From Squalus acanthias (Eukaryota), in contig CM059432.1 of assembly GCA_030390025.1 (NCBI GenBank), positions 32,924,001-32,988,000 on the forward strand: 64,000 nt of DNA. The letters are read 5' to 3'. The notes beneath the pieces were generated by a model. That model did no database searches. It was not told the origin of the DNA and saw only the letters and a program-made list of their open reading frames with translations. Position 1 is the stretch's first letter. The number at the start of each line of letters is the position of its first letter. Shown here in pieces: positions 4,106-26,127 of this stretch. The position numbers and the translations under genes are program-made.

Positions 4106-4277
4106 CTTCAAATCCCGATGAATGTAGTTTTGACTGTGAATGTAAGCCAAGCCATCACTGATCTGATAAACTATTTGAAGTCGATTCTTCTTCAGTTCAT
4201 CTACGTCAACATTTTGTAACCACGTCTTCAGTGTCTGCTTGCACAACTCCATTTGAATGCAGAGGTATTTAACCGCC
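4106..4277 (-). CDS. Kinase exon, subdomains V-VIb (YLCIQMELC...HRDLK)
   Basis: Acceptor cttttcatcag, donor gtacg, 172 nt; ends at HRDLK in phase 0. Confidence 0.92.
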
Positions 4278-7200
4278 CTGATGAAAAGAGTGCAAAATAG
4301 GATTTTAATTGTAGAATCATAGAATCTTACACCACAGAAGGAGTTCATTCGGCCCATCGTACATATGCGGCTCTTTGAAAGAGCTATCCAATTAGTCCCA
4401 CTCCCTGCACTTGCTCCAAATGTCTGCCCATGAAGCCATTCTCTATCCTTGATAAAACTGGTTTGAGTGTGCATTGGGGCTTTCTAATTAGGGCATATAT
4501 ATTTTGCAGATCTCCCAAAAATCAGTAATTTGGATTCAAATTGCCTTAAGGACCAGGTATACTTTTCTGGTGAACTCATCCTTGTTTGGCATATAAAAAT
4601 CTGTCAACATTGTCAACTTGCCAGCGTTCCCACCTCTGAGTCAGAGGGTTGTGAGTTATAGGAGCGTAGGAACAGGAGCGTAGGAACAGGAGCGTAGGAA
4701 CAGGAGCGTAGGAACAGGAGCAGGCCACTGTGGAAGTGCAGTTTACTTTTAAGACACAAATAAAATGGCTTCTCTAAGAAAAGAATTTAAAAAGGGAATT
4801 CAAAATGGCCGACAGTAGGAGTCACCATAATAAGTAAATCATTCTAATTAGCTACAAGGAGGTGACAACTCAAAATTCCTTATCTAAGAAAAGCTTAGCA
4901 AAATAAGGCATCAATTAGTTCTAACCAGCTCAGGATGAGATAAGGTAAGCCATCAACCCACAGATTAGAGAATGAACATTGAACAAACGGATCCCACAAG
5001 GAAGGTCTGGTTATCTGATCTTTAAGGAATTTCTGCTCGTTATTATAACGAAAACCTATGCAATAACTCACAAGTTTGTGCCTCATTAATAGGATGTTTA
5101 ATGCTATGTCATATGGCCTGTTCTGTGTTCTTTTTTGTATAAAGTATGTTCAAATCTTGTAAGATTCGAAGCATTCTGACATAGCAACTTGACTGTGTCA
5201 GAACCTTCCCTTGTAACAAGTAAACTTTATTAAAAAGCCTTCTTTGACACGATTCTTTGTTTAAATTAGTTCTACTCGGCATGTAAAACTTCCACACCAC
5301 TCAGCCCTTTGAGCCTGTCCTGCCATTCTATTAGATCATGGCTGAGCTGTACCTTAACTCTTTGATCCATATCTCTTGATACCCTTACCCAACAAAATCT
5401 ATCGATCTCAGTCTTGAGAGCTTCAATTAATCCATCATCCACAAATATTAAATGCTAAATTAAATTGTTGAGAATCCCTATCATTTTATACAATAGCAAA
5501 ATACTGCGGATACTGGAAATCTGAAACAACAACAGAAAATGCTGGAAACACTCAGCAGGTGGAGAGAGAAACAGAGTTAACGTTTCAGGTCAATGACCCT
5601 TCGTCAGAACTGGAAAAAATTGGAGAAGTAACAGATTTTTAAGCATGTGTGTGTGGGGCAGGGAAAGGGAGGAGGGGAGGAAAGAACAAAAGGGAAGGTC
5701 TGTGATAGGATGGAAGGCAGGAGAGATTGAAAGACAAAAGGGATGATGGTGCAAGGCAAAAGGAGATGGTAATCAGACTAGTAGAACTAGAAAATTTCAT
5801 TCACTTTGCTTCCAATTTCCACCCTTTCCTCACCTTCACATGGTCCATCTCCGACTCTTCTCTTCCCTTCCTCGACTTCTCTGTCTCCATTTCTGGGGAT
5901 AGGCTATCGACAAACATCCACTATAAGCCCACTGACTCCCACAGCTACCTGGATTACACTTCCTCCCACCCCGCTTCCTGTAAGGACCCTATTCCATTCT
6001 CCCAGTTTCTCCGTCTCCACTGCATCTGTTCTGACGATGCCACCTTCCATACTTGTGCTTCCGATATGTCTTCCTTTTTCCTCAACCGAGGATTCCCCTC
6101 TACTGTGGTTGACATGGCCCTCGACTGTTTCCGTTCCATTTCCCGCACTTCTGCTCTCACCCCTTCTCCTCCCTCCCAGAACCACGATAGGGTTCCCCTT
6201 GTCCTCACCTTTCACTCCACCAGCCTCCACATTCAACGGATCATCCTCCGCCATTTCCGCCACCTCCAGCGTGATCCCACCACCAAACACATCTTCCCCT
6301 CCCCCCCCCTTTCAGCATTCCGAAGGGACTGTTCCCTCCACGACACCCTGGTCCACTCTTCAATCACCCCCAACTCCCCCTCCCGTTCCCGGGGTACCTT
6401 CCCATGCAAGCGCAGGAGATGCAACACCTGCCCTTTTATTTCCTCCCTTCCCACTGTCCAGGGCCCCAAACACTCCTTTCAGGTGAAACAGCGATTTACT
6501 TGTACTTCTTGCGGTCTCCTCTACATTGGGGAGACCAAACGCAGATTTGGTGACCGCTTTGCGGAACAACTCCGTTCAGTCTGTAAGCGTGACCCCGAGC
6601 TTCCAGTCGCCTGTCACTTTAATTCTCTGCTCCACTCCCACTCCACTCCCACTCTGATCTCTTCGTTCTCTGCCTCTGACACTGTTCCAACAAAGCTCAA
6701 CGTAAGCTCGAGGAACAGCACCTCATCTTTCGAGTAGGCACTTTACAGCCTTCTGGACTCAACATCGAGTTCAACAATTTCAGACCATAACCTCGGCCCC
6801 TATGTTTTCTTTTCTCTCTCACATGGCAGCTGTTGATGATTCTGCCATTGCCAGTTTCACTTCATCTAGAGTCATCTTTAGCTTCTTAACTTGTCCCATT
6901 TCCATCTCCTTTTGCCTTGCACCATCATGCCTTTTGTCTTTTAACATTGTTTCCCACATTACAACAGTGACTACACTTCAGAAGTACTTCATTGGCTGTA
7001 AAGCGCTTTGAGACGTCCAGTGGTCGTGAAAGGTGCGATATAAATGCAAGTCTTTCTTTCTTTAATCTCTCCTGCCTTCCATCCTATCACAGACCTTCCC
7101 TTTGTTCTTTCCTCCCCTCCCCCCTTTCCCTGCCCCACACACTTGCTTAAAAATCTGTTGCTTCTCCAACTTTTTTCAGTTCTGACGAAGGGTCATCGAC

Positions 7201-10200
7201 CTGAAACGTTAACTCTGTTTCGCTCTCCACGATGCTGCCTGACCTGCTGAGTGTTTCCAGCATTTTCTGTTGTCCTATCATTTTATAGCCTTGGGAGCAG
7301 CAGGAAACTGACGAGCATGTGGGAAAACAGTCGACCAGTGAGCATCTCCCTGAGCTAGTGGATTGGTCCATACTCAGTGCCACTGAAGCTCAGCAGATCA
7401 GAGGAAGGCGCTGCCAGGACCATTAGGTGTTTTAAATGTGACAGGGTGGGTCACAAGTCAACTAACTGCTGGCCTGTAAAAGGGTTCACAGCGAATTTGG
7501 GGGAAAAAACAATGTGGTTGTGAGATTTGAGACTGCTGGTTGCAGGCTTGGAAAATAAAAATGGCTTTTTTTCTTACACCTGGTGATGAAATGATCCTAA
7601 TGGGATCAATTAATGAAAGAAAGAACGAGTGCCTTTCACATCCTCAAAGTGTCCCAAGGGATTAATTTTAAAGTGCATTCTCTGTTGTTATGTAGGCAAA
7701 CACAGCAACCAATTTGCATGCAGTAAGGTCACAGAAGCAACAAATGAAGGAATAATCAAATAATCTACTTTTGGTGAAATTGGTTGAAGGAGAAACATTG
7801 GCCAGGATACCTGGAAAACTGCCTGTGATATTATATGCACCCAAGCAAGCAGATGGGCCCTCAGTTTAATGTATAATCTAAAAGGCAGCACCTCTGACAA
7901 TGAAGCATTCCTTCAGTGCTGTACTTAAGTGTCAGCCAAGTTACAGGTTCAAGTCTTCTGTGGGGCTTGAACAGATGACCTTCTGACTCAAAGGCAGAAG
8001 TGCTACCAACTGAGCAAAACTGTCATCTAAATGAATGGATGGAACAATGGGGCAGCATGCTTGCAATGTTCTGATATGTGCTGCTGGTGGGCAAGTTAGT
8101 TCGGGACTCTTGTAGCTAATGGCACATGAGGCAACCCTCACAACCCCCTACCAGGAGGGTCTGTGGACTGCCTTTAGTCTAGCTTCTACCTTTTGACCTG
8201 TCTAGCTTGGTTGGGCCTACCAGGAGTAATACTCTCGCCAGCATAGCTCTCAGGATCATAGGAGCATGCAAGCCTTCCCACAACCTCAAGGGAAGGGCTG
8301 GTGGCAACATGAATTAGGGAAATTACCTCCAGCATTCCTGTGGTTCACATGCTGCTTGATTGGAATGGGTAATAAGAGCTAAATAGCAAGGCACAGGTTG
8401 GTCAGAATCACAAAGATATGAACAGACAAGGGAAGCCATTCAAGACATCTTTAAAAAAATATAATTCTTGGGATGTGTGCATCGGCATTTATTGCCCATC
8501 TCAAGTTGCCCTGAGAACGTGGTGGTACAACTGAGGAGTGGCTTACTAGGACACTTCAGAGGGCAGTTAAGAGTCAACCACGTTGGTGTGGGACTGGAGT
8601 CACATATAGGCCAGACCGGGTAAGTACCTCATGCTTCCACAGAAACTTGCAATCTCCCTGTGACAGCATCTGCCTTTTGAACGGCATCTTTTGCCTCCAC
8701 TACCCTACCCAGAAGACCATTCCAGGTCTTTGTCACTCTTAAGGACAGAACAGAGATGTTTAGCATCTACCTTGCATTTGCTGTTTTCATTGTCGAGTCT
8801 GCACCCTGAGCAGTGAATATTGTTTCATTGATGAATGGAGAGGTATGTAAATCAATCCTGATTTTTCTTATGATCACTTCTATATTAGAATAAATCCAAT
8901 AGCTAAATGTTTTTTGCACTCAACCTACCGTGATGAAGATGTGTCGATCCAGGAACTGTAGTAACGGATGATATTTTGATGAGAAAATCTTGCAAGTGTT
9001 CTGGCTTCTTTTATTATTGTCTGTGCATCCACATCCCTAAGAACATAAGAGCACGGAATGAGAAAGAGCCAGTCAGCCTATCAATTCTATTCCTTCCACA
9101 GAACACATCCACTGCATTCAATCACAGAATATACTAACAAATCTCCAGAGGGAACGTTCCGAAAAGTTTTAATTTGCTGTTCTCTCTCCCCAAGAGTAAA
9201 TCCACCAAAACTCTAGTTCTATCTAACTTTAAACCTTGCATTATACATCCTTGATCAGTCGCCTTCCTTGGCGAGACATTTTCATAGTCCCAACAGCTCA
9301 GACACCGTCATCATCTACCAGTACAGTGTTGTAGTCCTATCATTGACCCGCGCTGTCGGTGAGTGTGGTTGCCTGCTGGGAGCGCAGGATCGTGGAATCA
9401 GGCTGTGCCTTCAGCCGCCTAGGCGCTAAGCTTTGGAATTTCCTTCCTAAACCTCTCTGCCTCTACACCTCTCTTTCCTTCTTTAACACTCTCCTTAAAA
9501 CCCAATTCTTTGACCAACCTTTTGGTCACCTGTCCTAACATCTCCTTATGTGGTTCCTTGTCAATTTTTGTCTGATTGCAATCCTGTAAAGCGCTTGGGA
9601 TATTTTACTATGTTAAAGGCATTATATAATTGCAAGCTGTTATTTATCTACGGCTAATCATCTCTGTCAAGCCCAACATCTGACACATATACATTGCAGC
9701 AGGGTTACTGAAAGTAATCAAAACTGCGGAATATATTATTTTGTTTCATCTTTACTTCATCCTACATTTTTCAAACTTCTGCTCCCAAGCTTAGAGTCAC
9801 CTAATCACCTCTTTCACTCTTTTCAACCTTGGTGGTATTCTACACTATCAACCTTGGTCCTTATCCTTGGCTTCGGAACAAATAAAACAGGAATCCTGGC
9901 AGATTTTTCCCTCCCCACCCTGGTGGCACTGAGGTCTATTTTGGCAACTTCTCCATTGTTTCCAATTGAGGTCAACTAGGGTGGATTTACACAACAAGTT
10001 TAGCATTGGTGTGGGGCAGTCTTGAGCTCACTACTAAATGGGATTGTGAACTTATCAACTGAGTCCCACACTGAGAAAGGTAGCCACTCATTTTTGTGTG
10101 GGAGAGAGACATTGATTTGGGGATAGGAAGCAGAAATAAAGAACTTGCATTTATATAGGGCTTTTTACGACCTCAGGATGTCCCAAGGCGCTTTACAGCG

Positions 10201-13200
10201 AATGAAGTACTTTTAAACTGTAGTCACTGTTGTAATGTAGGAAACGCAGCAGCCAATTTGTGCAGAGCAAGCTCCCACAAACAGCAATGAGATAATGATC
10301 AGAAGCTTAATCTGTATTAGAGATGTTGGTTGAGGGATAAATATTGTTCAAGACACAAGAAAACTCATCTGCTCTTCTTCAAAATAGTGCCATGGGATCA
10401 TTTATGTCTTTCTTAGAGGGCAGACAGGGCCTCGGTTTAACATCTCATCTGAAAGATGGCAGCTCTGACACTGCAGCACTCTCTCAGAACTGCAATGAAA
10501 TATCAGTCTAGATTTTGTACTCAAGTCTGTGGAAGTGGGACTTGAACCCACAACCTTCTGACTAAGAGGCGAGAGCGCTACCACTGACCCAAGGCTGGCA
10601 CCTTAAGAAATAAGCACACCAATAAAGTTACAAAGCAGTGTGGATGAAGCTTGACCAGATCTGCAATGACTACCACTGATGATGGGTAAAAATAAAAGTG
10701 GAAAAATGATGGCATTCTGCAATCTTAACATCCTTCAATTTTTGTTATTCATCCTCGGGATGTGGGCGTCGCTGGCAAGGCCGGCATTTATTGCCCCTCC
10801 CTAGTTGCCCTTGAGAAGGTGTTGGTGAGCATTCTTGTTGAACCGCTGCAGTCCGTGTGGTGAATGCGTTCCCACAGTGCTGTTAGGGAGGGAGTTCCAG
10901 GATTTTGACCCCTGGGGACGGTTTGATTAGGGTGGACAGCTGCCCAGCTTCAAATGGAACTGTCCAATTTTTCGGGGCGGCTGCCTTTGTAATTTTGATA
11001 ATAGAAACTCAGACGACGAGAGTCCTGTTATCGGTAGATAGTATGTTTAGAAAAAGAAACTTTGTGAGCGCACACAGGAGCGGACATGTTTGTCAGTCGC
11101 ACGAGCACAAGCGGCCCATTTCACGTTACTCGTGTGTGCGCACGTCTGCACTAGATACGGTGACAACAAAAATTCACAAGGATAGAATAACATATTTTTT
11201 CCCAAGCAGAATAAGTACACTTACTCAGTTAATTCCACACATTTGATAGCATACACGCTGTTGTCGATTTTGTGTCTTACTTCGTAAACTGAACCAAAGG
11301 ATCCCTTTCCAATACTTTGTAGCTCATCAAAGGATTTCCTGTAACTGTAAATTCAGGTTTCATACACGGCTGGTCAGAATAAATAAACTGAGAGAAAAAA
11401 AAAATTACTAAATGAATAGTGGAATGAAAACAGTAAATACTGGAAAGCACTCAGCAGGTCAGGCAGCATCTGCGGAGAGAGAAACAGAATTAACGGCCCT
11501 GATAATAACTCGCAGGGGAGACGAGAACTAGGGGCCATAAAGAAAAGATAGTCACTAATAAATCCAATCGGGAATGCAGGAGAAACTTCTTTACCCAGAG
11601 AGTGGTTAGAATGCGGAACTCGCTACCACAAGGAGTCGTTGAAATGAAAAGCATAGATGTATTGGTGTCTAAATACAGAAATCTTTAAAGCTGATAGGGC
11701 AAGTTGATAAGGTGGTTAAAAAAGCATTGTTACTTGGGTTTATAAATAGAGGAATAGAATATAAAACCAGAGAGATCATGCTAGAACTTTATAAATCACT
11801 GGTTAGGCCTCAGCTGGAGTATTGTGGACAATTCTGGGCACCACACTTCAGAAAAGATGTAAAGGGTGCAGAGGATTTTTACCAGGATGTTACCAGGAAT
11901 GAGGGACTTCAGTTATGAGGAGAGGTTGGAAAAGTTAGGACTGTTCTCCTTGGAACAGAGAAGGTTAAGAGATGACCTAATACAGATTTTCAAGATGATG
12001 AGGTTTAGATAGAGAAAAACTATTTCCTCTGGCGAGTGGGTCAATAACCAGAGGTCATAGATTTAAAATCATTGGCAAAAGATCTAAGAGGGAGATGAAG
12101 AGAAATTTTTACACTGAGAAGTTGTCGGGATCTGGAATGCTCTACCTGAAAAGGTGGTGGAAGCTGATTCCATAAATAATTTTAAAAGGGTGTTGGACAG
12201 GTGCTTGAGGATGAGGAACTTACAGACAAAAAGCGGGGGTGTGGGACTAAGCATGACTGCTCTTTCAAAAAGCCAGCTCAGGCACGACGGGCCGAATGGC
12301 CTCCTTTTGTGCTGTAACTTTCTATGATTCTATGCATTCAAGAGGAAGCTAGATAAGCACATGAAGGAGAAAGGAATAGAAGAATATGTTGATGGGATTA
12401 GATGAAGAGTGGTGGGAGGAGGCATGGACCTGGTGGGCTGAATAGCCTGTTTCTGTGCTGTAACTACTTTGTAACTCCGAGACGTGTAAGGAGCTGGGGG
12501 CAGGGGTCTGAAATTGTGTGGGAAACCCGGAAGAACTTTCAGCGCGTCTGTCTGTGGCATTTTAACTCTGCCACCTAATTAGAATATTACTTTCTGGGTT
12601 TGGCGTCGAATACGTGTCAGCGAGCGTGGTACGGACCTGCATGTCGCAATTGCAGAATTGTGAAAAAGCTCCCAACTCCTCTAAATTCCATCTTTGATTT
12701 GCCCTTTAAATACTTGAGTTGAGATCGCGTCATGCAGGTCCGTACCACGCTTGCTGAAGATGGACTCAGGATGCTCAAAGGCCACACTTTAACAAGGCCT
12801 CCCTTGATGTACTGTTGGGTGCATTGAGGAGTCAGAGAGAGATACTCTTCTCCAGCAATGGGAGGAAGAAACCTGCTGCTGCCGTAAAGAAGGCGTGACC
12901 GGATGTGGCTGAGGAGGATAGCATCAAGAGCATTGTGCCACGCTCCTGGCTTCAGTGCAGGAAGCGCTTTAATGACCTAACCAGGTCAGGAAAGGTAAGT
13001 ACAGCTTCACATTCACCTACATCCAGTTGTGCGCATTACCCCAGCCCTCGCCTCACTCAAGCCTACTACATCACATTACTCCTCACAACCACTTACCTTG
13101 CAATCATTCTCTTTCTATGCAATTACTCACATCCTCATCTATCCACCCACCACTGTCACTCACCCTGGTCCTTATGCAATTTGATGCCTCTCCCTGATAG

Positions 13201-16200
13201 TCACCCTCACCAAATGTACTGCATCCATCGGATGAACAGGTGCATTTGCAGTCACTTATAGGTCTGTTCTTTCCCCTGTCGCAGGAGGAGAGCCGAGAAC
13301 ACTAGGGAGAGGGAGAGAACTGGAGGTGGTCCTCCACAGAATTTCCAGCTGACAACTGCAGAGGAGGAAGCACTGGAGATTCGGGGCATTTCGGTGTCCC
13401 TAGCCATCGGAGATAGGGAGATGGGGACCTCCCAGCTACCTGGTGACAGAATTAAATATCAGCGACCCACATGTCATACAATACTCAGTTATAAACCTTT
13501 TTTTGTGGTTGCACACCAACTGAACATTGATGGAGTGGAAGCCCTTGCGATTGACGCATACTCCTGGTTGATCTGGGGGTGCGCGGTTTGCCATGTGTGT
13601 GCAGTCAATGCCGCCCGGCATCTGTGGGAAGCCAGCCAGAGACACAAACCCGAGCGTCCGCTCATTCTGACTGATGTCATCACAGGCGAAGTTGACATAA
13701 TTGCCCTGGCAAACAACCTGCCTTATGCGTTTATGTGCAGCCGACTGGGAGATCCTGAATATGTCTTTGGCAGTGCCCTGGAAGTATCCGGAGGCAAAAA
13801 AGTTGAGGGCGGTGGTCACTTTCACAGCCACTGGTAATGTGTGGCCACCAGGTCCAGCAGGCAGCAGGTCTTCTTCTAGGAGGCTGCAAATATCTGTCAC
13901 CACCTGAAGTGACAACCTCAGCCTCCGGAGGCGCTGCTGTTGGGACATGTCAAGGAAACACAGCCTCTGCCTGTACACCCTGTTACGTGGGTAGTGCCAC
14001 TTGCGAACTCGACCCCTCTGCTGCTCCCCTTTCTACTGCTCCCCTATCTGCTCACCACCTGCAGGTCAATCCACTGCACGCTGTTGCTGCTGCTGATGGT
14101 CACCTTGCTCTTCATCCGAGGTCCAATCTAAGGCAGCCACAGCACCACCCATCCTGATCTGCATATCAATACCTCCAAAGTGCAGAAATTAACCTTTCAC
14201 CACAAGTACTCTCCGAGTGGTAGGTAAGAAAGCAGCTGTGAGCGCTGAGTATTTATTGCAGTATTTGCTTGGCTTTTAATGAGCCCCATGAATTGCCATT
14301 CTGTTCCCACCTTGGTTTCAATGGCGAGCTTCAGGAAACCCGGGAAACCCATGTATGTGCCATTAAATTTAAATGCCGGTTAAAATATAGCTGGAATTCA
14401 TATTTAAATTGCTAACCCGCCTCTCCGGAGGCAACCAGCCGAACGCGCCCGAGTTAAAACCGGGAATCAGCGCACTGGAGCCGGCTTCCGGACACGATCA
14501 CATTTTCGCCGTCTTTAACCACCTACCCGCAACTAAACCCACGCACTCCTCCAGGTTAAAATTCCCCCCAACATTTCAGGTCGATGACCTTTCATCAGAA
14601 CTGGAAGATGTTCGAGGTGAACAGGTTTTAAGCAAATATAGAGCCACGGAAAGGGGGTCAGGGACAGAACAAAGTCTGTGATAGGCTGGAGTGAAAAATA
14701 ACAAAAGGGATGATGGCGCTAGGCAAAAGGAGGTGATAATGAGACAAGTATAGAAACAAAAGATGGGTCCAGAGTAGGTGTAAATGGTTAAAGCAGTATA
14801 GCCGAGGGGGAGGATAGCATATCAAATCTGGCAAAGTGGAGAGGGTTGCCGTGGTATGGGAATGCGGCGGATGAAAAGCAGGTGGACTCCAGGGGTGCGG
14901 ACCACCCCGTGTTACTTTAGAGGATCTCCACCCCTAGCACCAGCCCAACCTTCTCCACTCCCAGTGGCTCTGGTGCAGCCATCCTCCATTACCAACACCT
15001 GCTGTCTGAGAGAAAATGGAAACGGCAAAAAGCCTAATTCCAATAACCAAAAGATTTCAACATTAAAAAAATCCATCAAGTGAATTTCCCTATATTCTTA
15101 TACAGAGAGATACAGTACAATTGCTGGTGCCTTTCAGTCAGCTCTCATTCCCTGGTTGTTTAAAGGCTGCCTGGGAGCAGTTATTTTGTACAGGAGATCT
15201 TACACGGCATTAGAAGTTACATTCCAGTGGCATTATTAACAGGGAGGGCTGCCGTCAAACCAGTCTTCTTGTTCATGACGTCACTGGATTGTAACTTCTA
15301 ATGCAGTATATGAACTCATAATGTCACTTTACATGGAGTTGCACACAAACTGGCTGTTTGCAAGCTGCTGCTAACCTATAATTCTGAAGTATAAAAACAC
15401 TATAGCAAGTGGCAAGATACTTAATTATAGTTTGTTATTGACTGTCCCAAGTGCTGGCATCAGTTTTTGCACCTCTAGATTTCCAGTGGTGCTATTTTGA
15501 ATGAAATTGTAAACAAACACATTTATGGTTTGTGCTCATTGTCAGAGCGCATCTGCTAAATCTCTGTACTTAAAAAGGTGTATAGTATACAGTGAATCAT
15601 AAATCTGCAGGGCTCTGGGGAAAGAGCAGGAGAGTGGGACTAATTGGATAGCTCTTTCAAAAAGCCGGCACAGACAAGATGGGCTGGATGTCCATCTTCT
15701 GTACTGTATGATTCTATGATTCCAAGAAAGAGACATCTGGGTAAGGGAGAAAGAGAGGGAAAGAAAGAGAGAGACACACACACACAAAGTTGGGGAGTGG
15801 GGAAATTAGAGAAAGACATACAATCAAGGGATGGGGGAGAGACAGAGAGAGATACACAACATGGAGAGGGGGTGGGCGACAGAGAGAGATACACACACTA
15901 ACAAATGTGTGAGGATAGAAAGATGTACACACACAATCCGGGCAGGTGGGATGGGGAAGAGAGAAAGAGAGAGACATAAACATAACCAAGAAACACAGGG
16001 GAACCTGAAGGGGAGAAAGAACAAATTAAAAGAAAAGGCAAGGAAAGACTATCAGACCCATCATGTCATCCTTTTGCTTACCCTCATATCCAATCATGTG
16101 AGGGATAAACACTCAACCTGAGGAGGGAGCAGAGGGATAGACACAAACAACTGGCATAACTGACTCAAATCTTCACTCCAACTGCAGTGTACCACTGTCC

Positions 16201-18566
16201 TACAGCCTGCAACTCTATTGACAGGATCCACTTTACTTGTGACCAATACCACAGATCAACTGCTACAGCTATAAACAATTGTTACAAGACGATTCTGCTT
16301 CAACTCAGAGTTGAAGTTGGATGAACGAGCATGGGGTGTGCACTGCAGCCCCTCCTCCTCATCCACGTCAATTCTGAGCATCACAGTGGTCTGCGAAAGA
16401 ACACAGGAAGATTACAACTGGCGCGCAGACAGTGGCAGGTGAATGAAAAGTATAGTTACAAAGAGAAAGAAGTTACCAAGTAACAAAGGTGTAGCTATGA
16501 CTTTAGTGATTATTGAGTATTAGTGATCAAAAATCTGCTTACAATGACCGTCTTTTAAACTTGCTGGGTTCGATGGTGTCTTCAGTTTGGTTAAAATCCT
16601 CTTGGTAGCTTTCAGCAGATTCATCAAGTAGTGAGTTACAGTCAGAAGACGCAGTGGTATCGGAAAATAATTTAGGACTTGTACCAAATCCGGAGCTTTC
16701 AGTAATGTTTTTGGCAGGAGGCATGCCAGAGAGATCGTAACTACTGTCACTGGAATTCGCTAAGCTTAACAAGAATTTGACTTTTCTTTTTGCATTGCTA
16801 CTGTCAACAAACAGGACATTATCAGAACTATTTGTCTCTTCAGAGGTAGAGGTTTGAGGATGGGGCCTATCCAGTTTATCTGACCCAAACTCACTGGAAC
16901 TATTGGGGCAGGTATCCAAGGCTCCACGTGTACCATCTATATCAACTGGCACAGGGTCACTGGGATCGCAACAATTGGTCTTCATGCTCAAAGGCACGGG
17001 ACTACCGGGATTCGTGTGGCCAGAGCTTGCTATCTTAAGTCCATCCAGGTTTACGAATTTTTCATTTGCTTCACTTCCTTCATAGCTGGGGTTGTTGACA
17101 TCAATAGGGCAAGCATGTTCAGACTTATTGAGGTTGGATATGTTAGCTTCATCATTCCTGGCAGGACTAGATTTATTAGATACACACCTACACCAAGAAA
17201 AACAAATACCATTGAGACAATGAATTCTATACGTGGACTGGCTTTGAGAACAGTTTTATTTATACTGTAATTGTTTTTTTAATTTCTAACTTTCTGTTGT
17301 CCTCTTCTGCAGGCACTTACAGGGCTATTGGAAGCCATCTTGCACGGTACTCTATGCTACACGTTTGAGCTAGATAATGGCTTTCAACGGACTATTCAGC
17401 CGTGGAGGTTAATCACAGCTAAACACAACATCCTGCAGGAGTCATTAGATCGTAATCAGAAGTGAGAACTCGGGCTGATTTTTGCCCTTCTCTAGCCCAG
17501 GGACAATGAAGCCAACTGTAACACCCCAACACTGACCTGGCTGAGTCAAGTTGACTCAAGATGAAATCCAGGATCCTATTGACCTGTATGGCTCAGTACC
17601 ACACCAGATGGTGTACTTACTGTTTGAGCCATGTGAGGAGCACACTACAGATTTTCTTTTGTTTTAATTTTAACTAAGAAACATTTCAAGACAAGACTGG
17701 GATAACTTTGACTTTGGGCAACAGTGTAAAACAGGCGATATCGGATCAGCCGCCCGTGATACATCGCTTGACGATTTTCATTTCCATTCAAGTCAGTGCG
17801 CCCATGTTTCTGCAACTCAGCACCAGTGGGTGACCCCTGATGGGCAGCGTGCTTTTGTGGCCGTTCGATCAATTGAGCCTGCTCTATCATTTTGGCAGCT
17901 CTATCTCTTCAATCCCAATTTCCTGCCCTCTCTCCCTAAATAAGTCCCAATCAACCCTTCAAACACCTCAATTGATTCTTCATTGATGGGCTTCTGGGAC
18001 AGTGCTTTCTACATTCTTCGAAACCTTTGTTTGAAGACATTTTTCCTTGGATTTGCTTTTAATCAGCCATATCTAAAATGAGGTCCCTTGTTCGGGATTC
18101 CTCTACTAAGGGGAGGAGCTGTTAAAAAAAATTATTCATTATCAGAATGTGGGCGTCACTGGCAAGACCGGCATTTATTGCCCATCCCTAGTTGCCCTTG
18201 AGAAGGTGGTGGTGAGCCATCGCCTTGAACCGGTGCAGTCCGTGTGGTGAAGGTACTCCCACAGTGCTGTTAGGGAGGGAGTTCCAGGATTTTGCCCCAG
18301 CAACGATGAAGGATTGGCGATATACTTCCAAGACAGGGTAGTGTGTAACTTGGAGGGGAACTTGGAGGTGGTAGTGGTGAGGCACAGAACCTTCCATCAG
18401 GTAACTGTACTGCACTGAGGCACAGAACCTTCCATCAGGTAACAGTGCTGCGCTGAAGCAGAGAGACAATATTGCATACACATACTTTCTGTACTTACTC
18501 GAGGGCAGTTCCCACGGATTTGTTGCTCTTCATTTCCGTCTCTGCTTTGTTCTCAGCCTTTTTGTC
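4106..18566 (-). CDS. EIF2AK2-like: eIF2-alpha kinase, PKR-like (spliced; 3' part lies outside the window). Exons 18499-18566, 16543-17187, optional 14916-15005, 11225-11344, 8929-9036, 4106-4277
   Basis: Exons have AG/GT borders with compatible phases (2,2,2,2,0). They join to ...YRKSFDELQSIGKGSFGSVYEVRHKIDNSVYAIKCVELTE|DVDAQTIIKEARTLARFSHQNIIRYYSSWIDTSSSR|AVKYLCIQMELCKQTL...IHSQNYIHRDLK. The L-x-IQMExC motif is typical of eIF2-alpha kinases. Orthology within the family is not established. Confidence 0.85.
4660..4720. repeat. 14-bp tandem repeat (ggagcgtaggaaca) x4; expanded CR1 3' tail
   Basis: Direct reading; continues into minus-strand CR1 3' sequence at 5301-5445. Confidence 0.8.
4729..5296 (+). 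mobile_element. Solo LTR (568 bp)
   Basis: TGTGGAAG...CTTCCACA termini, 4-bp TSD ccac, internal TATAAA and ATTAAA; interrupts a CR1 tail. Confidence 0.8.
5494..7272 (+). mobile_element. Penelope-like element, 5'-truncated (RT C-terminus and GIY-YIG endonuclease remnant)
   Basis: ORF 5727-6737 has LPFLD, YKPTD and LYIGETKRR. 5494-5775 is an inverted copy of 6890-7272. A SINE tail is inserted at about 6945-7062. Confidence 0.85.
7615..8025 (-). mobile_element. tRNA-derived Deu-type SINE, diverged
   Basis: Head gctcagttggtagcac...gttcaag; same body as 10135-10600. Confidence 0.75.
8929..9036 (-). CDS. Kinase exon, subdomains III-IV (KEARTLARFSHQNIIRYYSSW)
   Basis: Acceptor tcttatgttcttag, donor gtaggt, 108 nt, phase 2-2. 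Confidence 0.88.
10135..10600 (-). mobile_element. tRNA-derived Deu-type SINE, full length
   Basis: A- and B-box-like head and ...ctatataaatgcaagttcttt tail; many copies in the window (37000-37345, 39680-40110, 45757-46196). Confidence 0.85.
11225..11344 (-). CDS. Kinase exon, subdomains I-II (IGKGSFGSV...YAIK)
   Basis: Acceptor tttacag (an alternative AG lies 6 nt inside), donor gtaagt; Gly-rich loop and catalytic Lys present. Confidence 0.92.
11665..12335 (+). mobile_element. CR1 LINE 3' fragment
   Basis: [15 protein letters not shown] motif, ctatgattctatg tail. Confidence 0.85.
12495..14569. mobile_element. Degenerate, internally deleted Harbinger transposon (Myb/SANT remnant on +, transposase remnant on -)
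   Basis: QCRKRFNDLTR exon ending about 12993; IDCTH and NRKGFHSINVQLVC in 13436..13978; right terminus ttaaaattcccc. Confidence 0.8.
14916..15005 (-). CDS. Candidate symmetric cassette exon of the kinase gene (QQVLVMEDGCTRATGSGEGWAGARGGDPL)
   Basis: Strong acceptor ccattttctctcag, donor gtaaca, 90 nt, open in the required phase 2-2. Confidence 0.4.
16543..17187 (-). CDS. Large Ser/Asp/Asn-rich N-terminal exon of the kinase gene (about 215 aa)
   Basis: 645 nt open frame, acceptor tttcttggtgtag, donor gtaagc, phase 2-2; contains track ORF 16539..16997. Confidence 0.8.
18499..18566 (-). CDS. Kinase gene exon (DKKAENKAETEMKSNKSVGTALE); first in-frame ATG at 18533
   Basis: Acceptor atttttctcaacag, donor gtaagt; phase matches the exon starting at 17187. 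Confidence 0.75.
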
Positions 18567-18824
18567 CTGTTGAGAAAAATAGTTGCTTTGACAGCACTTT
18601 TAATGACAGCACTTTTAAACTCCCAACTGTCTGACCTTTGGCCCTCCTTTCGCCACAATACTTCTGCAGCTGCTCAATTATACCCTCACCATCTTTCCTT
18701 GTCCCCAGTAAAACCCTTACTCTCTCCCACCCTGGTTGCTCTCCTTGGTATGGTCCCCCATCTTCATTCCCTTAAGTCCAAGGGATGGAGAAATGAATGT
18801 ATATGGCAGCACTCAAGGTAGAAA

Positions 18825-21800
18825 AGTCATCCGGTCTGGATTTGATGCATCTTAGATTGCTGAGGGAAGTAAGGGTGGAGAAGGCTCTGGCCACAATCTT
18901 CCAATCCTCCTTAGATATGGGAGCGGTGCCAGAGGACTAGAAGGTTGCAAATGTTACACCACTGTTCAAAGAAGGCGAGAGGGATAAACCCAGCAACTTC
19001 AGGCCTGTCAGCTTAACGTCAGTGGTGGGAAACTTTTAGAGACAATAATCCAAGACAACATTAACTATTACTTGGAAAAATATGGGTTAATAACTGAAAG
19101 CCAAAATGTATTGTTAAAGGCAAATCATGTTTGACTAACTTGATTGAGTTCTTTGCTAAGAGACAGAAAGAGAGAGAAGTGCTGAAAAGTTTGTTTTTCA
19201 GACTGGAGGGAAGTATACAGTGGTGTGTCCCCAGGAGTCAATATTAGGACCACTGCTGTTTTTGACATATATTAATGACCTGGACGTGGGTATTCAGAGC
19301 ATAACTTCAAAGTTTGCAGATGACACGAAACTCAGAAATATAGTAAACAGTGAGGACGATAGTTCTCCTTCTTAGGCAGTCCCTCGGAACCGTGGATGAC
19401 TTGCTTCCACATTAAAAATGAGTTCTCAGGTGACTGATGAGTCCAATGCGGGACCTACAGTCTCTGTCACAGATGGGGCAGACGGTGGTTGAAGGGGCGG
19501 GTGGGTGGGGTGCTTGGGTTGACGTGCACTCCTTGCGCTGCTTGTGCTTGGCTTCCGCTTGCTCCCGGCGAAGACTTGAGGTGTTCGATGCCTTCCCAGA
19601 TGCTTGTCCTCCACTTTGTGCGGTCTTGGGCCAGGGATTCCCAGGTGTCAGTGGGGATGTTGCACTTTTTCAAGGAGGCTTTGAGGGTGTCCTTGAAGCG
19701 TTTCCTCTGCCCACCTGGGGCTCTCTTGTCGTGTCGGAGCTCCGAGTAGAGCGCTTGTTTTGGGAGTCTCGTATTGGGCATGCGGACGTTGTGACCCGTC
19801 CATCGGAGCTGATCGAGCGTGGGCAAAGCTTCGATGCTGGGGATGTTGGCCTGAGCGAGAACACTGACGTTGGTACGCCTATCTTGCCAATGGATTTGCA
19901 GGATCTTGTGGATGTAGCGATTATGGTACCTCTCCAGTGCTTTGAGGTGCCTGCTGTACATGGTCCATGTCTCTGAGGCATACAGCAGGGCGGGTATCAC
20001 TGCTGCTCTGTAGACCATGAGATTAGTGCCGGGTTTGAGGTCCTGGTCTTCAAACACTCTCTTCCTCAGGTGACCGATGGCTGCACTGGCACACTGAAGG
20101 CGGTGTTGGACTTTGTCATCGACGTCTGCCCTTGTTGACAGTAGGCTCCCGAGGTATGGAAAGTGGTCCACGTTGTCCAAGGCTTTGTCGTGGATTTTGA
20201 TAATCGGTTGGCAATACTGTGTGGCGGGGGCAGGTTGGTAGAGGACCTTTGTCTTACAGATGTTTAGTGTAAGGCCCATTCTCTCGTACACTTCAGTGAA
20301 GGTGTTGACGATGGTTTGGAGTTCGACCTCCGAGTGAGCGCAGACGCAAGCGTCGTCTGCATACTGTAATTCAACGACAGAGGATGGGACGACCTTGGAT
20401 CTGGACTGGAGGCGACGGAGGTTGAACAGTTTCCCGTTTGTTCTGTAAATTAGCTCCACTCCAGCGGGGAGCTTACTGAGGGTGAGATGGAGCATTGCAG
20501 CAAGGAAGATCGAGAAGAGCGTTGGTGCGATGACACAGCCTTGCTTGACCCCGGTCCGTACGTGAATTGGGTCTGTGGTGGAACCGTTGGTCAGGATCAC
20601 GGCTTGCATGTCGTCGTGAAGCAGGCGGAGGATGGTGACAAACTTTTGAGGGCAGCTGAATTTGAGGAGGACACTCCATAATCCCTCACGGTTGACAGTG
20701 TCGAAAGCCTTTGTGAGGTCAAAGAAGGCCATGTACAGCGGTTGGTGCTGTTCCCTGCATTTCTCTTGTAATTGACGTGCGGTGAAGATCATGTCCATTG
20801 TGCCCCTTAGTGGGCGGAATCCGCATTTCGACTCTGGGAGGAGCTCTTCGGCCACTGGGAGAAGGCGATTGAGGGGGATTTTTGCGATGACTTTCCCTGT
20901 GGCAGACAGCAGGGAAACTCCTCTGTAATTACTGCAATCGGACTTGTCACCTTTCTTGAAGATGGTCACAATTACGGCGTCTCTGAGATCCCCTGGCATG
21001 CTCTCCTCCTTCCAGATAAGAGAAATGAGTTCATGAATTCGCGCCAGTAGTGCTTCTCCGCCATGCTTTAGTGCCTCGGCAGGGATTCCATCTGCTCCTG
21101 AGGCCTTGTTGTTCTTCAGTTGTCGGATGTCCTTTTCAACCTCCTGCCGGGCTGGGGTTGTGCTGAGATGGTGGCGGGTAGCATGCTGCGGGATGGAGTT
21201 GAGGACACTCGCGTCGAAGACAGAGTCTCGGTTAAGGAGATCTTCGAAGTGCTCCTTTCAGCGGGCACTGACTGCCTCTCTGTCCTTGATGAGTACCTCT
21301 CCGTTCTTGGCCCTGCAGTGAGGTAGGACCGAGTGAGGGACCGCAAAGACGTCCGCATCACCCGCGCCATGACAGGAGCTGACGACTGCTGGACAGACCA
21401 CCGCCTAATCCGCTCTGTCATCTCCATCAATGTAGCGCCAAAACAGCGGTGGCAACAGAAACAATGCCGCAGGAAAATCAATGCTGGAGCACTCAAAGAC
21501 CCTGCTAAGAAAGCCCTATTCAGCCTGCGCCTCACAAACAACCTGATGACACCCAGTGATGCAGAGACACAGAGTGTCCACAGCGCCTGATCTGCACTCA
21601 AAGCCTCCATAATCAGCACCTGTGAAGAGACGCTCGGTCACTCGACCAGGAAACACCAAGACTGGTTCGACGAGAACGACCATGAGATCCAGGAGCTAAT
21701 AAGCCGCAAGCGCAAGGCATTCCTGATCTGGAAACAGCAACAGAACTCGAGAGCAAGGAAGCAGCTCTACAGACGCCTGAAGGCCGAGGTCCAACAAAAA

Positions 21801-22790
21801 ACTCGCGACCTAAAGAACAGATGGTGGGTGGAGAAAGCGCAGGAGATCCAGCAGCTAGCCGACAACCACGACGTGCGTGGATTCTTTAGTGCAGTCAAGA
21901 CCATCTACGGCCCAAGCACTCAAGGACGATAGTAACAGACTTCAGGAGGACATTTAAGGACTGATGAAATGGGCAGACAATTGGCAGCTGAAATTTAACG
22001 TAGAGATGTATGAAGTGATGCATTTTGGTAGGAAGAATGAGGCGAGGCAATATGAACTAAATGGAACAATTTTAAATGGGATGCAGGAGCAGAGAGACCT
22101 GGGGGTGTATGTGCACAAATTTTTGAAGGTGGCAGGACAAGTTGAGAAGGCTGTTAAAAAAGCATAAGGGATCCTTGGCTTTATAAACAAAGCTATAGAG
22201 TACAAAGCAAGGAAGGTATGCTAAACCTTCAAGAATCACTGGTTAGACCCCAGCTGGAGTATTGTGTCCCATTCTGCGCACCACACTTTAGGAAGGATGT
22301 CAGGGCCTTAGAGAGGGTGCTGAGGAGATTTACTAGAACGGTGCCAGGAATGCGGGACTTCAGTTATGTGGAGAGACTGGAGAAGCTGGGATTGTTATCC
22401 TTAGAGCAGAGAAGGTTAAGGGGAGATTTAATGGAGGTGTTCAAAATCATGCAGGGGTTTGATAGTGTAAATAAGGAGAAACTGTTTCCAGTGGTAGAAG
22501 GATAGGTTATCAGAGGATACAGATTTAAGATAATTACCAGAGGCGAGATGAGGAGAAATATTTTTACGTAGCGAGTTGTTATGACCTGGAATGCACTGCC
22601 TGAAAGGGTGGTGAAATCAGATTCAATAATAACTTTTAAATGGAATTGGATAAATATTTGAAGGGGAAATATTTGTAGGGCTATGAGGAAAGGGCAAGGG
22701 AATGGGACTAATTGGATAGCGCTTTCAAAGAGCTGGCACAGGCACGATGGGTCGAATGGCCTCCTTCTGTGTTGTATCATTCTATGACAC
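18825..22790 (+). mobile_element. CR1 LINE ORF2/3' part, split by an RTE insertion
   Basis: RT motifs (INDL, KFADD) up to 19363 resume at 21934 and run to the CR1 tail. Confidence 0.85.
19364..21922 (-). mobile_element. RTE-clade LINE with 5' inversion
   Basis: 510-aa RT ORF (GVKQGC, QYADD); 21331-21922 inverted; TSD aggacgatagt at 19353-19363 and 21923-21933. Confidence 0.92.
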
Positions 22791-23059
22791 TATAATTGGT
22801 TTAGCCATACATTGCCAGATCTGATTGGATCACATCAAGCACTATTGGGCCCTGATCTCCGCTGCCAAAACTGCTTAACACTCCAGGATAACCCCCGGCT
22901 TCTTTTCTCCACTACCAATCATCTCGTTAAATCCCTCCCCCACTGCCCCTCAACACTCACCTCGAACAACAAGTGCAAGAAGCTCATGGACCGTCTTACC
23001 ACTAAAACTGAGACCATCTGTTCAGCTGCATCTGCCACATTCCTCTTTTCCCCCAAACA

Positions 23060-25410
23060 ACAACAACTTGTATTTATATAGCACCTTTAACGTAGCAAAA
23101 CGTCGCAAGGCGTTTCACAGCAGTGTTATAAAAGACAATTTGACACCGGGTCACATAAGGGGAAATTAGGGTAGATGTCCAAAAGCTTGATCAAAGAAGT
23201 AGGTTTTAAGGAGCGTCTTAAAGGAGGAAAGAGAGGCGGAGAGGTTTAGGGAAGGAATTCCAGAGCTTAGGGCTTTGGCAGCTGAAGGCACGGCTGGCAA
23301 TAGTTGAGTAGTTAAAATCAGGGATGCTCAAGAGGCCAGAATCAGAGGAGTGCAGATATCTCGGAATGGTTGTGGGGCTGGAGGAGATTACAGGGATAGG
23401 GAGGAGCAAGGCCATGGAAGGATTTGAAAACAAGGATGAGAGTTTTAAAATCGAGGTGTTGTTTAACCGGAAGCCAATGTAGGTCAGTGAGCACAGAGGT
23501 GATGGGTGAACGGGACTTGGTGCGAGTTAGGACACGGGCAGCAGAGTTTTGGGATAACCTCAAGTTTACGTAGGGTAGAACGTGGGAGGCCAGCCAGGAG
23601 TGAGTTGGAATAGTCAAGTCTAGAGGTAACAAAGGCTTGGATGAGGGTTTCAGCAGCAGATGTGATGAGGCAGGGGCGGAGGTGAACGATGTTACGGAAG
23701 TGGAAATAGGCGGTCTTAGTTATGGCGCGGATATGTGGTTGGAAGCTCATTTCGGGTCAAATATGACACCAAGGTTGCGAATAGTCTGGTTCAGCCTCAG
23801 ACAGATGTTAGGGAGAGGGATAGAGTCAGTGGCTAGGGAACAGAGTTTGTGGTGGGGACTGAAGACAATGGCCTCGGTCTTCCCAATATTTAGTTGGAAT
23901 AAATTTCTGCTCATCCAGTACTGGATGTCGGACAAGCAGTCTGACAATTTAGAGACAGTGGCGGGTCGAGAGAAGTGGTGGTGAGGTAGAGCTGGGTGTT
24001 GTCAGCGTACATGTGGAAACTGACGCTGTGTTTTCAGATGATGTCACAGAGGCGCAGCATGTAGATGAGAAATAAGAAGGGCCAAGGATAGATCCTTGGG
24101 GGACACCAGAGGTAACAATGAGGGAGCAGGAGAGAGCCATTACAGGTAATTCACTGGCTACGATTAGATAGATAAGAATGGAACCAAGCAAGTGCAGTCC
24201 CACCCAGCTGGACGACGATGGAGAGGCGCTGGAGGAGAATGGAGTGGTTAACCGTGTCAAAGGCTGCAGACAGGTCGAGAAGGAGGAGGAGAGATACTTT
24301 ACCTTTGTTACAGTCGCATAAGATGTCATTTGTGACTTTGATAAGAGCCATTTCGATACTGTGGCGGGGGCGGAAACCTGATTGGAGGGATTCAAACATG
24401 GAGTTCTAGGAAAGATGGGCACAGATTGGGAGGCGTCAACACGTTCAAGGACTTTGGAGAGGAAAGGGAGGTTGGAGGTGGGACGGTAGTTTGCAAGGAC
24501 GGAGAGGTCAAGGGTTAGTTTGGTGAGGAGAGGGGTGATGATGGCAGATTTGCAGGAGAGTGGGACAGTACCTGAGGAGAGAGATCTTTTAACAATTTCA
24601 GCTAACATGGGAGCCAGAAGAGGAAGTTGGGTGGTCAGCAGTTTAGTGGGAATAGGGTCGAGGGAGCAGGAAGTGTGTCTCATGGACAAGATGAGCTTGG
24701 AGAGGGCATGAGGGAATACCGGAGAGAAACTGGAGAAAGTTCAGGGTTAGGGCAGCGGGGGGAACCTTAGAGTAAGTTTGGCTCGGGGAAGGAAGGGAAG
24801 TGGCAGAGGCAGCTGATTGGATGGTCTCAATTTTAGAGAGAAAGAAGTCCATGAGCTCCTCGTACTTGTTGTTGGCGATGAGGGTGGAGGAGACAGGGGA
24901 GAGGGGTTTAAGAAGATGGTTTGCAGGAGAGAAAAGAAGCTGGAGGTATTTTTGCATTTCAAAATGATCCTGGAAAAGTGAGCAGTTTTTGCAGAGGAGA
25001 GCTGGACCCGATGATGCTTTATATGTCCCAGCCAGATCTGGCGGTGAATGGCTAAACCAGTTGTCCACCATATCCATTCAAGTCTGCATCCCTTGGACTT
25101 AAGGAAGCGGAGATGAGGGCTGTACCAGGGGGAACGGCCAGGGTGAGAGAGAGTAATGGTTTTAATAGGGACTAGGGCAGCAAAGGTGGTGTGTGGTTGG
25201 CAGAAATGTCGTGGTGAATGGAGGGCCAAAGGCTGGACAGTTAGGATTTTGTAAGTGAGTTGGAGGAAAGTTTTTTCTAGGGGCATATACACAAGGAAGT
25301 AGGGTTAGGGAGGGGGGGGGGGAAGGGGGATATGGGTGGAGAGCGATAAAAGGAAGTGGTCAGAGATGGCCTTATCTGTAGTTAACACGATGGGACACAT
25401 CACACCAAGC
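23060..25410 (-). mobile_element. L2 LINE, decayed
   Basis: [21 protein letters not shown] and LHWLPV fragments; (caa)n tail; short plus-strand L2 pieces flank it. Confidence 0.85.
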
Positions 25411-25603
25411 TATCTTGAAGGTTTGCCCTTCCCTAGCCATGAATTTGCATCTTTCTCTAGTTTCGCTCCCATCTTCTCTCATGCACTCTCCAAGTTCATT
25501 ACATTACTAAAACAGATTATCTGGTCATTATTACATTGCTGTTTGTGGGAGCTTGCTGTGCGCAAATTGGCTGCCGCGTTTCCTTCATTGCAACAGTGAC
25601 TAC

Positions 25604-25984
25604 GAGAAGGAGTGCTTGTCTACGTTCGCATGCTCTATCTGACAATATTCCACTTGTAAATTGCTTTGTATGTTGAAGAAACAATATTCTCCTTTTAGAT
25701 TGCTTTTTATGCTGAAGTTAAAGAATAAATTAATTGTAACCATAAGACTGAATGTATTATTACTCAAGTGAACAACAGATGATTGTTTATAATAACAAAA
25801 AGATGAGAAGTATAGACTCACAAACTCACCAGCAGTTCACTGGGTCTCTGCGCCCGGCTCTTGTTCTTTAAGCTCTGCTGTTTCCTCCTCAGTTCAGAGA
25901 TTAGTTTCCTTAAGAACTCTGGAAGCTGCACAGTGTCAGTAAACGCTGCCCTTTCCAATCTTCGTGTTGTCCAGCAAAATGGAC
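25604..25984 (-). other. Probable upstream exons of the kinase gene (25830-~25984 and 25604-25711), either 5'UTR or coding
   Basis: Donor ctg|gtgagt at 25830 and acceptor ttctttaacttcag at 25711. Both frames are open and in phase with the 18566 exon but contain no in-frame ATG. The second donor (gtagtc) is weak. Confidence 0.5.
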
Positions 25985-26115
25985 CTTGGATTCAATTGAA
26001 AAAAATCACTCGGGAGCAATACACGGAGAGTAATAAGTAAGAAATTATCAGTTGATAAACATATGCCTAAATATGTCAGCCACTCCCCAGCTTTCTGATT
26101 CCTATCAATTCCTTA

Positions 26116-26127
26116 AGTTTCACTTTC
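26116..26127. promoter_or_regulatory. ISRE/IRF element
   Basis: AGTTTCACTTTC matches the AGTTTCNNTTTC consensus; lies in unique sequence about 130 bp 5' of the most upstream kinase exon. Confidence 0.65.

Follow-up and report, generated by a model that had tools for sequence, protein, structure and literature searches.

A kinase-only PKR-sis orthologue in Squalus acanthias with spliced contigs and a putative ISRE-like motif at its 5' end

A 64,000-nucleotide stretch of the genome of the shark Squalus acanthias (assembly GCA_030390025.1, contig CM059432.1, positions 32,924,001 to 32,988,000; hereafter the window) carries on its minus strand a gene that is almost certainly this shark's orthologue of PKR-sis, a cartilaginous-fish eIF2-alpha kinase with no domain other than the kinase. 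The gene family is not new: PKR-sis was named and assayed in 2024 (Wu et al., PMC11305385). What is new here is the gene structure, the splice evidence, the lead of an ISRE-like promoter (ISRE, interferon-stimulated response element) and a caution on the origin story. The central question is what turns PKR-sis on in the shark, and two leads bear on it: an ISRE-like motif in a position like that at the PKR gene, and alternative splicing that changes two residues where the kinase begins.

The catshark protein XP_038664788.1 is labelled scPKR-sis in the supplement of PMC11305385 and has E281, K294 and C342, in agreement with that paper. In the window protein, the same alignment columns are occupied by E248, K261 and C309; E248 and C309 stand where human PKR has Lys283 and Phe363. 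The Cys is kept in all nine PKR-sis sequences and the Glu in seven of them (Lys in the white shark, His in the chimaera). Over the kinase, the window protein was 76-80% identical to seven shark orthologues and 60% identical to that of the chimaera; with catshark scPKR-sis, identity was 76% in the kinase and 54% in the N-terminus. When analyzed with IQ-TREE (75 rows chosen from about 380 proteins, 277 columns), the window kinase fell inside the cartilaginous-fish PKR-sis clade with a support of 100/100, and the clade that includes it received 1.0 in FastTree (221 of 267 rows). Kinase-only architecture, the diagnostic Glu and Cys and this single clade are thus common to the window gene and the published PKR-sis.

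A protein search with the N-terminal exon returned six proteins, every one from sharks, and a search with the kinase added the Mustelus and Callorhinchus orthologues. When 1.84 billion representatives were searched with a profile, the top two clusters were of shark and chimaera and were followed by a steep drop. These results supported a gene that appears restricted to cartilaginous fishes within the libraries searched. An earlier note on this DNA had proposed a lineage-specific eIF2-alpha kinase; the lineage was borne out, the kinase itself having already been described as PKR-sis. No PKR-sis of rays or carpet sharks was found in the protein searches, though PKRs from these groups appeared; this may reflect loss, or simply incomplete annotation or searching.

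The gene has ten exons, all bounded by GT-AG sites; the window contains six of them, and the other four lie to its left. Its features are the following (window positions, unless stated otherwise; the window is G000:C8:32924001-32988000).

26127-26116, minus strand: putative ISRE-like motif GAAAGTGAAACT, located 6 nt before the outermost 5' end among the aligned contigs (26110)
26110-25830, minus strand: exon 1, non-coding, from contig pieces in four of four runs and the gene model
18566-18499, minus strand: exon 2, 68 nt, from its splice sites; first in-frame ATG at 18533
17187-16543, minus strand: exon 3, 645 nt, an acidic Ser/Thr-rich region, predicted to be disordered
11344-11225, minus strand: exon 4, 120 nt, from the Gly-rich loop to the catalytic Lys261; tandem acceptors 11344 and 11338, both in frame
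9036-8929, minus strand: exon 5, from helix alphaC Glu277 up to the short kinase insert
4277-4106, minus strand: exon 6, from IQMELC up to HRDLK; one match in the genome
4105-1, minus strand: in-window portion of intron 6, which runs on to exons 7-10 outside the window
G000:C8:32918446-32918306, 32911531-32911424, 32908950-32908888 and 32907773-32907357, minus strand: exons 7-10, outside the window, intact

The reading frame from ATG 18533 is 499 aa long, with zero stops or frameshifts over 499 codons, and GKGSFGSV, Lys261, Glu277, HRDLKPAN, DFG, GTRLYMAPE and DIYSLG are all intact. Exons 7-10 encode the DFG, the activation loop with Ser394, the APE, DIYSLG, helix alphaG, the stop codon and the 3' untranslated region. 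The first in-frame ATG given in the earlier note and all six in-window exons were confirmed; the note had also left open a pseudogene with missing or broken C-lobe exons, and these four exons show no such sign. Exon 6 and the promoter region have one match each in the 3.7-Gb genome, the promoter being single-copy DNA.

At the 5' end, the open frame is closed 65 codons upstream of ATG 18533 by a stop in the same frame within exon 1 (25994-25992), and the translation of exon 2 resembles the N-termini of the orthologues in protein comparison. The orthologues begin further upstream (MSQLPE-like) and have a Gly at the position of ATG 18533; the window protein, starting at this downstream ATG, is about 20-40 aa shorter than most of them. 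Window exon 1 has TDTVQLPE, with a GTG at 25931. Start-codon turnover, or a GTG start at 25931 giving 45 extra aa, may possibly account for this. The likeness of exon 1 to the orthologue start was matched by 11-47% of shuffles and is not significant, and no separate start exon like that of the orthologues was found within 145 kb upstream. Exon 1 also holds an upstream open reading frame of four codons (MFIN, 26062-26048, ATG at 26062); short upstream reading frames can favour translation under eIF2-alpha phosphorylation.

The contigs compared with this model were those of four out of 12 runs (two studies), the RNA nature of the runs being a guess. In each of the four, a single contig carries both an exon 1 and an exon 3 piece, separated by 69 nt; as this offset equals exon 2 plus two unaligned bases, exon 2 was taken to be present. 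The exon 1 pieces start at 26110, 26088, 26093 and 26013 (one per run), and introns 8 and 9 are spliced joints in every run. Run X1 gave a single 2,144-nt contig in which positions 22-303 correspond to exon 1, 373-1015 to exon 3 and 1554-2144 to exons 8-10, exons 2 and 4-7 being deduced from the contig offsets and not aligned as separate pieces. This contig agrees with the ten-exon model to within shared junction letters. The ten exons fill it exactly, and there is therefore no space for exons encoding double-stranded RNA-binding motifs (dsRBMs) or Z-alpha domains; the further exons that would have spoken against the proposal of the earlier note did not appear.

The same contigs corrected one splice site. 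A 541-nt offset in three of them implies a 120-nt exon 4, i.e. the upstream acceptor 11344, and not 11338 as first proposed. The two acceptors, 6 nt apart, yield SFYRKSF or SLKSF at the first kinase helix, which in PKR is part of the dimer face. The long form is implied by the three contigs and is that of the seven other orthologue records; in contrast, the catshark protein assayed in yeast is the short form (SLRSF), and activity of the window copy is a prediction.

The absence of dsRBM and Z-alpha domains was supported by several searches. With the N-termini of 17 PKR/PKZ proteins as queries, tblastn gave 0 matches in 264 kb around the window gene, and a control at the PKR locus of this genome gave 70 matches from 15 of the 17 queries. 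Pfam returned zero families at E<=0.1 in the N-terminal exon and the exon 1 open frame. The kinase was the sole domain in eight of eight scanned orthologues, with dsrm and z-alpha recovered in the controls. Genome-wide, at least 15 dsrm and at least two z-alpha matches (those two on C24) were found with Pfam, none near the window gene. Together with the contig fit, these results upheld the earlier proposal, and the window gene is supported as an intact eIF2-alpha kinase without dsRBM or Z-alpha.

The N-terminus has a net charge of -16 over 222 aa and 24% Ser/Thr. The earlier note had described a basic segment and a Ser/Asp/Asn-rich, probably disordered sequence; disorder is indeed predicted, but the region is net acidic, with a basic patch solely at the junction with the kinase. 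FoldIndex was negative for the N-termini of all nine PKR-sis sequences. In the AlphaFold model of the Heterodontus orthologue, residues 1-248 are nearly without secondary structure and the kinase is confident; the predicted local confidence (pLDDT) is about 30-50 in the N-terminal region vs 71-98 in the kinase, the low values being confounded by the shallow alignment in that region. The best structural matches of this model are the kinases of PERK, PKR and GCN2. An earlier AlphaFold run on an 8-sequence alignment (mean pLDDT 34.6) was uninformative, and an ESM Atlas search with the N-terminal exon gave no usable match, which indicates neither absence nor novelty. In spite of its predicted disorder, the window N-terminus is 52-65% identical to those of seven shark orthologues, which is the lead towards a binding partner.

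On these grounds, we lean, with modest confidence, towards a mechanism in which an intact, spliced PKR-sis is induced by interferon and stays latent until a partner dimerises it. Interferon would raise PKR-sis transcription through the ISRE-like motif, and the kinase would remain inactive until dimerised by a putative partner. This partner, a protein in place of double-stranded RNA, would probably bind the conserved acidic disordered N-terminus. The dimerised kinase would then autophosphorylate Ser394, which lies at the position of PKR Thr446, and phosphorylate eIF2-alpha, so that translation would be lowered. The gene structure, the intact catalytic motifs, the absent sensor domains and the orthology were observed in this analysis; the Ser51-dependent and kinase-dependent toxicity is that of the catshark orthologue in yeast, and solely as a glutathione S-transferase (GST) fusion (PMC11305385). 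In that system, full-length galactose-driven scPKR-sis left growth normal, and the GST-fused protein arrested growth and phosphorylated eIF2-alpha, with a requirement for K294 and Ser51. Human double-stranded RNA-binding domains (dsRBDs) grafted on scPKR-sis were functional only after two further changes (PMC11305385).

The interferon step is based on the promoter. Using a search pattern which we take to represent the ISRE, two matches were found in the window vs 0.30 expected per 64 kb, and none between the window gene and the ELP6 exons; over 264 kb, looser forms were counted 6 times. By a post hoc estimate, the probability that a match falls by chance within 100 nt of the 5' end is about 1 in 2,000. 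The motif at the 5' end agrees at 12 of 13 positions with the ISRE consensus quoted in PMC5371264. At the PKR locus of the same genome, two ISRE-like motifs were observed on the minus strand (G000:C9:44483968 and about 30 nt downstream; L030), about 130 nt before a GT donor and 6 kb upstream of the first coding exon. The motifs and the donor are probably the PKR promoter with a non-coding first exon. With an ISRE-like motif at its 5' end, PKR-sis is likely to be induced by interferon. The earlier note had suggested control mainly by interferon induction; the motif favours the interferon part, but "mainly" conflicts with the inert overexpressed catshark protein. Nothing on PKR-sis regulation was found in the literature searched on shark PKR, interferon and ISRE (subscription papers mostly not covered), and the terms ISRE, intron, synteny and disorder are absent from the main text of PMC11305385.

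Several points weigh against the proposed mechanism. The RNA nature of the four runs is a guess, and contigs cannot locate a transcription start. The yeast data concern another species and the isoform with the short exon 4 acceptor. The N-terminus is merely 27% identical to that of the chimaera orthologue and shark genomes evolve slowly, so that its conservation among sharks may mean little. Finally, chicken ISRE motifs are only slightly commoner at interferon-regulated genes than at controls (PMC5371264), which makes such motifs weak predictors.

Latency could not be attributed to the loss of one dimer salt bridge. The R262-D266 salt bridge (an Arg/Asp pair) has been called strictly conserved for PKR dimerisation (PMC6467004). 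This pair is missing in nine of nine PKR-sis sequences and also in seven of seven cartilaginous-fish PKRs, among them the PKR encoded by the kinase exons on G000:C9 (L026). Its loss is thus not specific to PKR-sis and was rejected as the reason for latency; whale shark PKR, from a group without the pair, is active in yeast (PMC11305385).

A wider reading, which we regard as rather doubtful, is that PKR-sis adds a fifth arm to the integrated stress response of cartilaginous fishes, one that is induced by interferon and triggered by a protein partner and not by RNA. The promoter with ISRE and non-coding exon would then be shared with PKR by descent, and interferon control would therefore be older than the capture of dsRBDs by PKR.

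The origin of the gene calls for caution. The PKR-sis, PKR and PERK genes of this shark share seven kinase-exon breaks, identical in position and phase. The earlier note had read the breaks as PKR-like; they do match PKR, but PERK has all seven, so that they mark the PERK/PKR group and were ruled out as a PKR marker. In IQ-TREE this group had a support of 100/99, its three branches were not resolved and PKR-sis was placed with PERK at 49/31 only. In FastTree, PKR-sis was sister to all PKR with a support of 0.93, which is the published view (PMC11305385). By the approximately unbiased (AU) test, this position had p=0.49, a sister position to cartilaginous-fish PKR, which would mean loss of dsRBMs, p=0.25, and a grouping with jawed-vertebrate PERK p=0.0005. 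The last was rejected, and with it an origin of PKR-sis as a whole-genome-duplication copy of PERK. The phylogeny proposed as a check in the earlier note thus placed the kinase in the PKR-sis clade. The dsRBMs may never have been gained in PKR-sis or may have been secondarily lost, both being compatible with the tree. Possible loss bears on the use of PKR-sis as a stand-in for the PKR ancestor.

PKR proper lies on C9, has three dsRBM exon pairs and is about 0.2 Mb from a striatin gene, presumably the neighbour of human PKR as well. Striatin matches were found on C1, C9 and C28, and none on C8, where the window gene lies beside ELP6; a copy arisen within the PKR neighbourhood was rejected on this basis. 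PKR-sis is like PKR (EIF2AK2) in its seven breaks, its short kinase insert (11 aa in the window protein, 11-13 aa in PKR-sis, 11-20 aa in shark PKR) and an ISRE-like motif that precedes a first exon which is probably non-coding in PKR. It is unlike PKR in its lack of dsRBMs and its location, and the kinase is only 36% identical to that of the PKR of this genome. With PERK (EIF2AK3), located on C2, the window gene shares the breaks with their phases, a kinase identity of 38% and the best matches among solved structures; unlike PERK, it has neither a luminal domain nor a long kinase insert. PKZ of ray-finned fishes is also a PKR-type kinase without dsRBMs; its Z-alpha domains and its position nested within PKR (PMC11305385; IQ-TREE) set it apart from the window gene.

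Other explanations were weighed against the partner-driven mechanism. PKR-sis might be co-induced with PKR and mainly soak up viral PKR inhibitors or pair with PKR, with little signalling of its own. Its promoter has the same layout as that of PKR, the protein alone is inert in yeast (PMC11305385) and a decoy role was proposed for tarsier PKR copies, which likewise retain the kinase without dsRBDs (bioRxiv 10.64898/2026.10.23.761390). The tarsier copies are recent, positively selected tandem duplicates of PKR, one of them active untagged, whereas PKR-sis is old, unlinked and slow-changing. Against a decoy role, for the same species pair the PKR-sis kinase has 76% identity and a tree distance of 0.25, vs 63% and 0.63 for PKR. 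The PKR-sis kinase thus changes about 2.5 times more slowly, which is unlike the bait of an arms race. As the catalytic Lys, HRD and DFG are also retained in nine of nine sequences, we consider this explanation unlikely.

It is likewise improbable that the ISRE-like motif is there by chance and that PKR-sis answers another cue, like HRI, PERK and GCN2. The looser motifs noted above, contig samples without a known immune challenge and a tree (IQ-TREE) that places PKR-sis no nearer PKR than PERK are consistent with such a non-immune kinase; the low chance of a match so close to the 5' end and the same layout at the PKR gene argue against it. We find it quite improbable that interferon acts by raising the PKR-sis level until mass action dimerises it, with neither sensor nor partner. 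The motif is present and human PKR at high concentration activates without activators (PMC6467004); however, the overexpressed catshark protein has no effect on growth unless forced to dimerise by GST, so that induction alone would probably not activate it. Finally, an artefact, with dsRBMs encoded by upstream exons that were overlooked, or with a gene copy in decay, is hardly credible and already largely refuted: exon 2 is open upstream of the ATG, so that further residues could come from an alternative first exon, the longest contig has 21 unaligned nt at its beginning and the start codon is unlike that of the orthologues, but the exact contig fit, the tblastn and Pfam negatives around the gene, the kinase as sole domain of the orthologues and the 499 undisturbed codons speak against it.

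The nearest downstream gene is ELP6, on the same strand about 20 kb away, of which three exons were found (G000:C8:32863695-32887394, minus strand; L004-L007). No upstream neighbour gene was recognised among 65 scanned frames (a selection out of 966 unique frames and 27 exon candidates). An 835-codon stop-free frame lies upstream of the gene (L015:4032-6536, minus strand), with zero Pfam families at E<=0.001. A lone copy of a PERK luminal-domain exon was observed at G000:C8:104703992-104704177, minus strand (L042), with no other PERK or kinase exons within 80 kb around it. The remaining window features are mobile elements, the first of which we take to be Harbinger-like.

41837-45649: DDE_Tnp_4 transposase with a Myb/SANT partner frame
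46199-51425: non-LTR element, zinc knuckle and reverse transcriptase frames
19470-21257: reverse transcriptase frame of 596 aa in intron 1
63217-63786: Gypsy-like RNase H fragment

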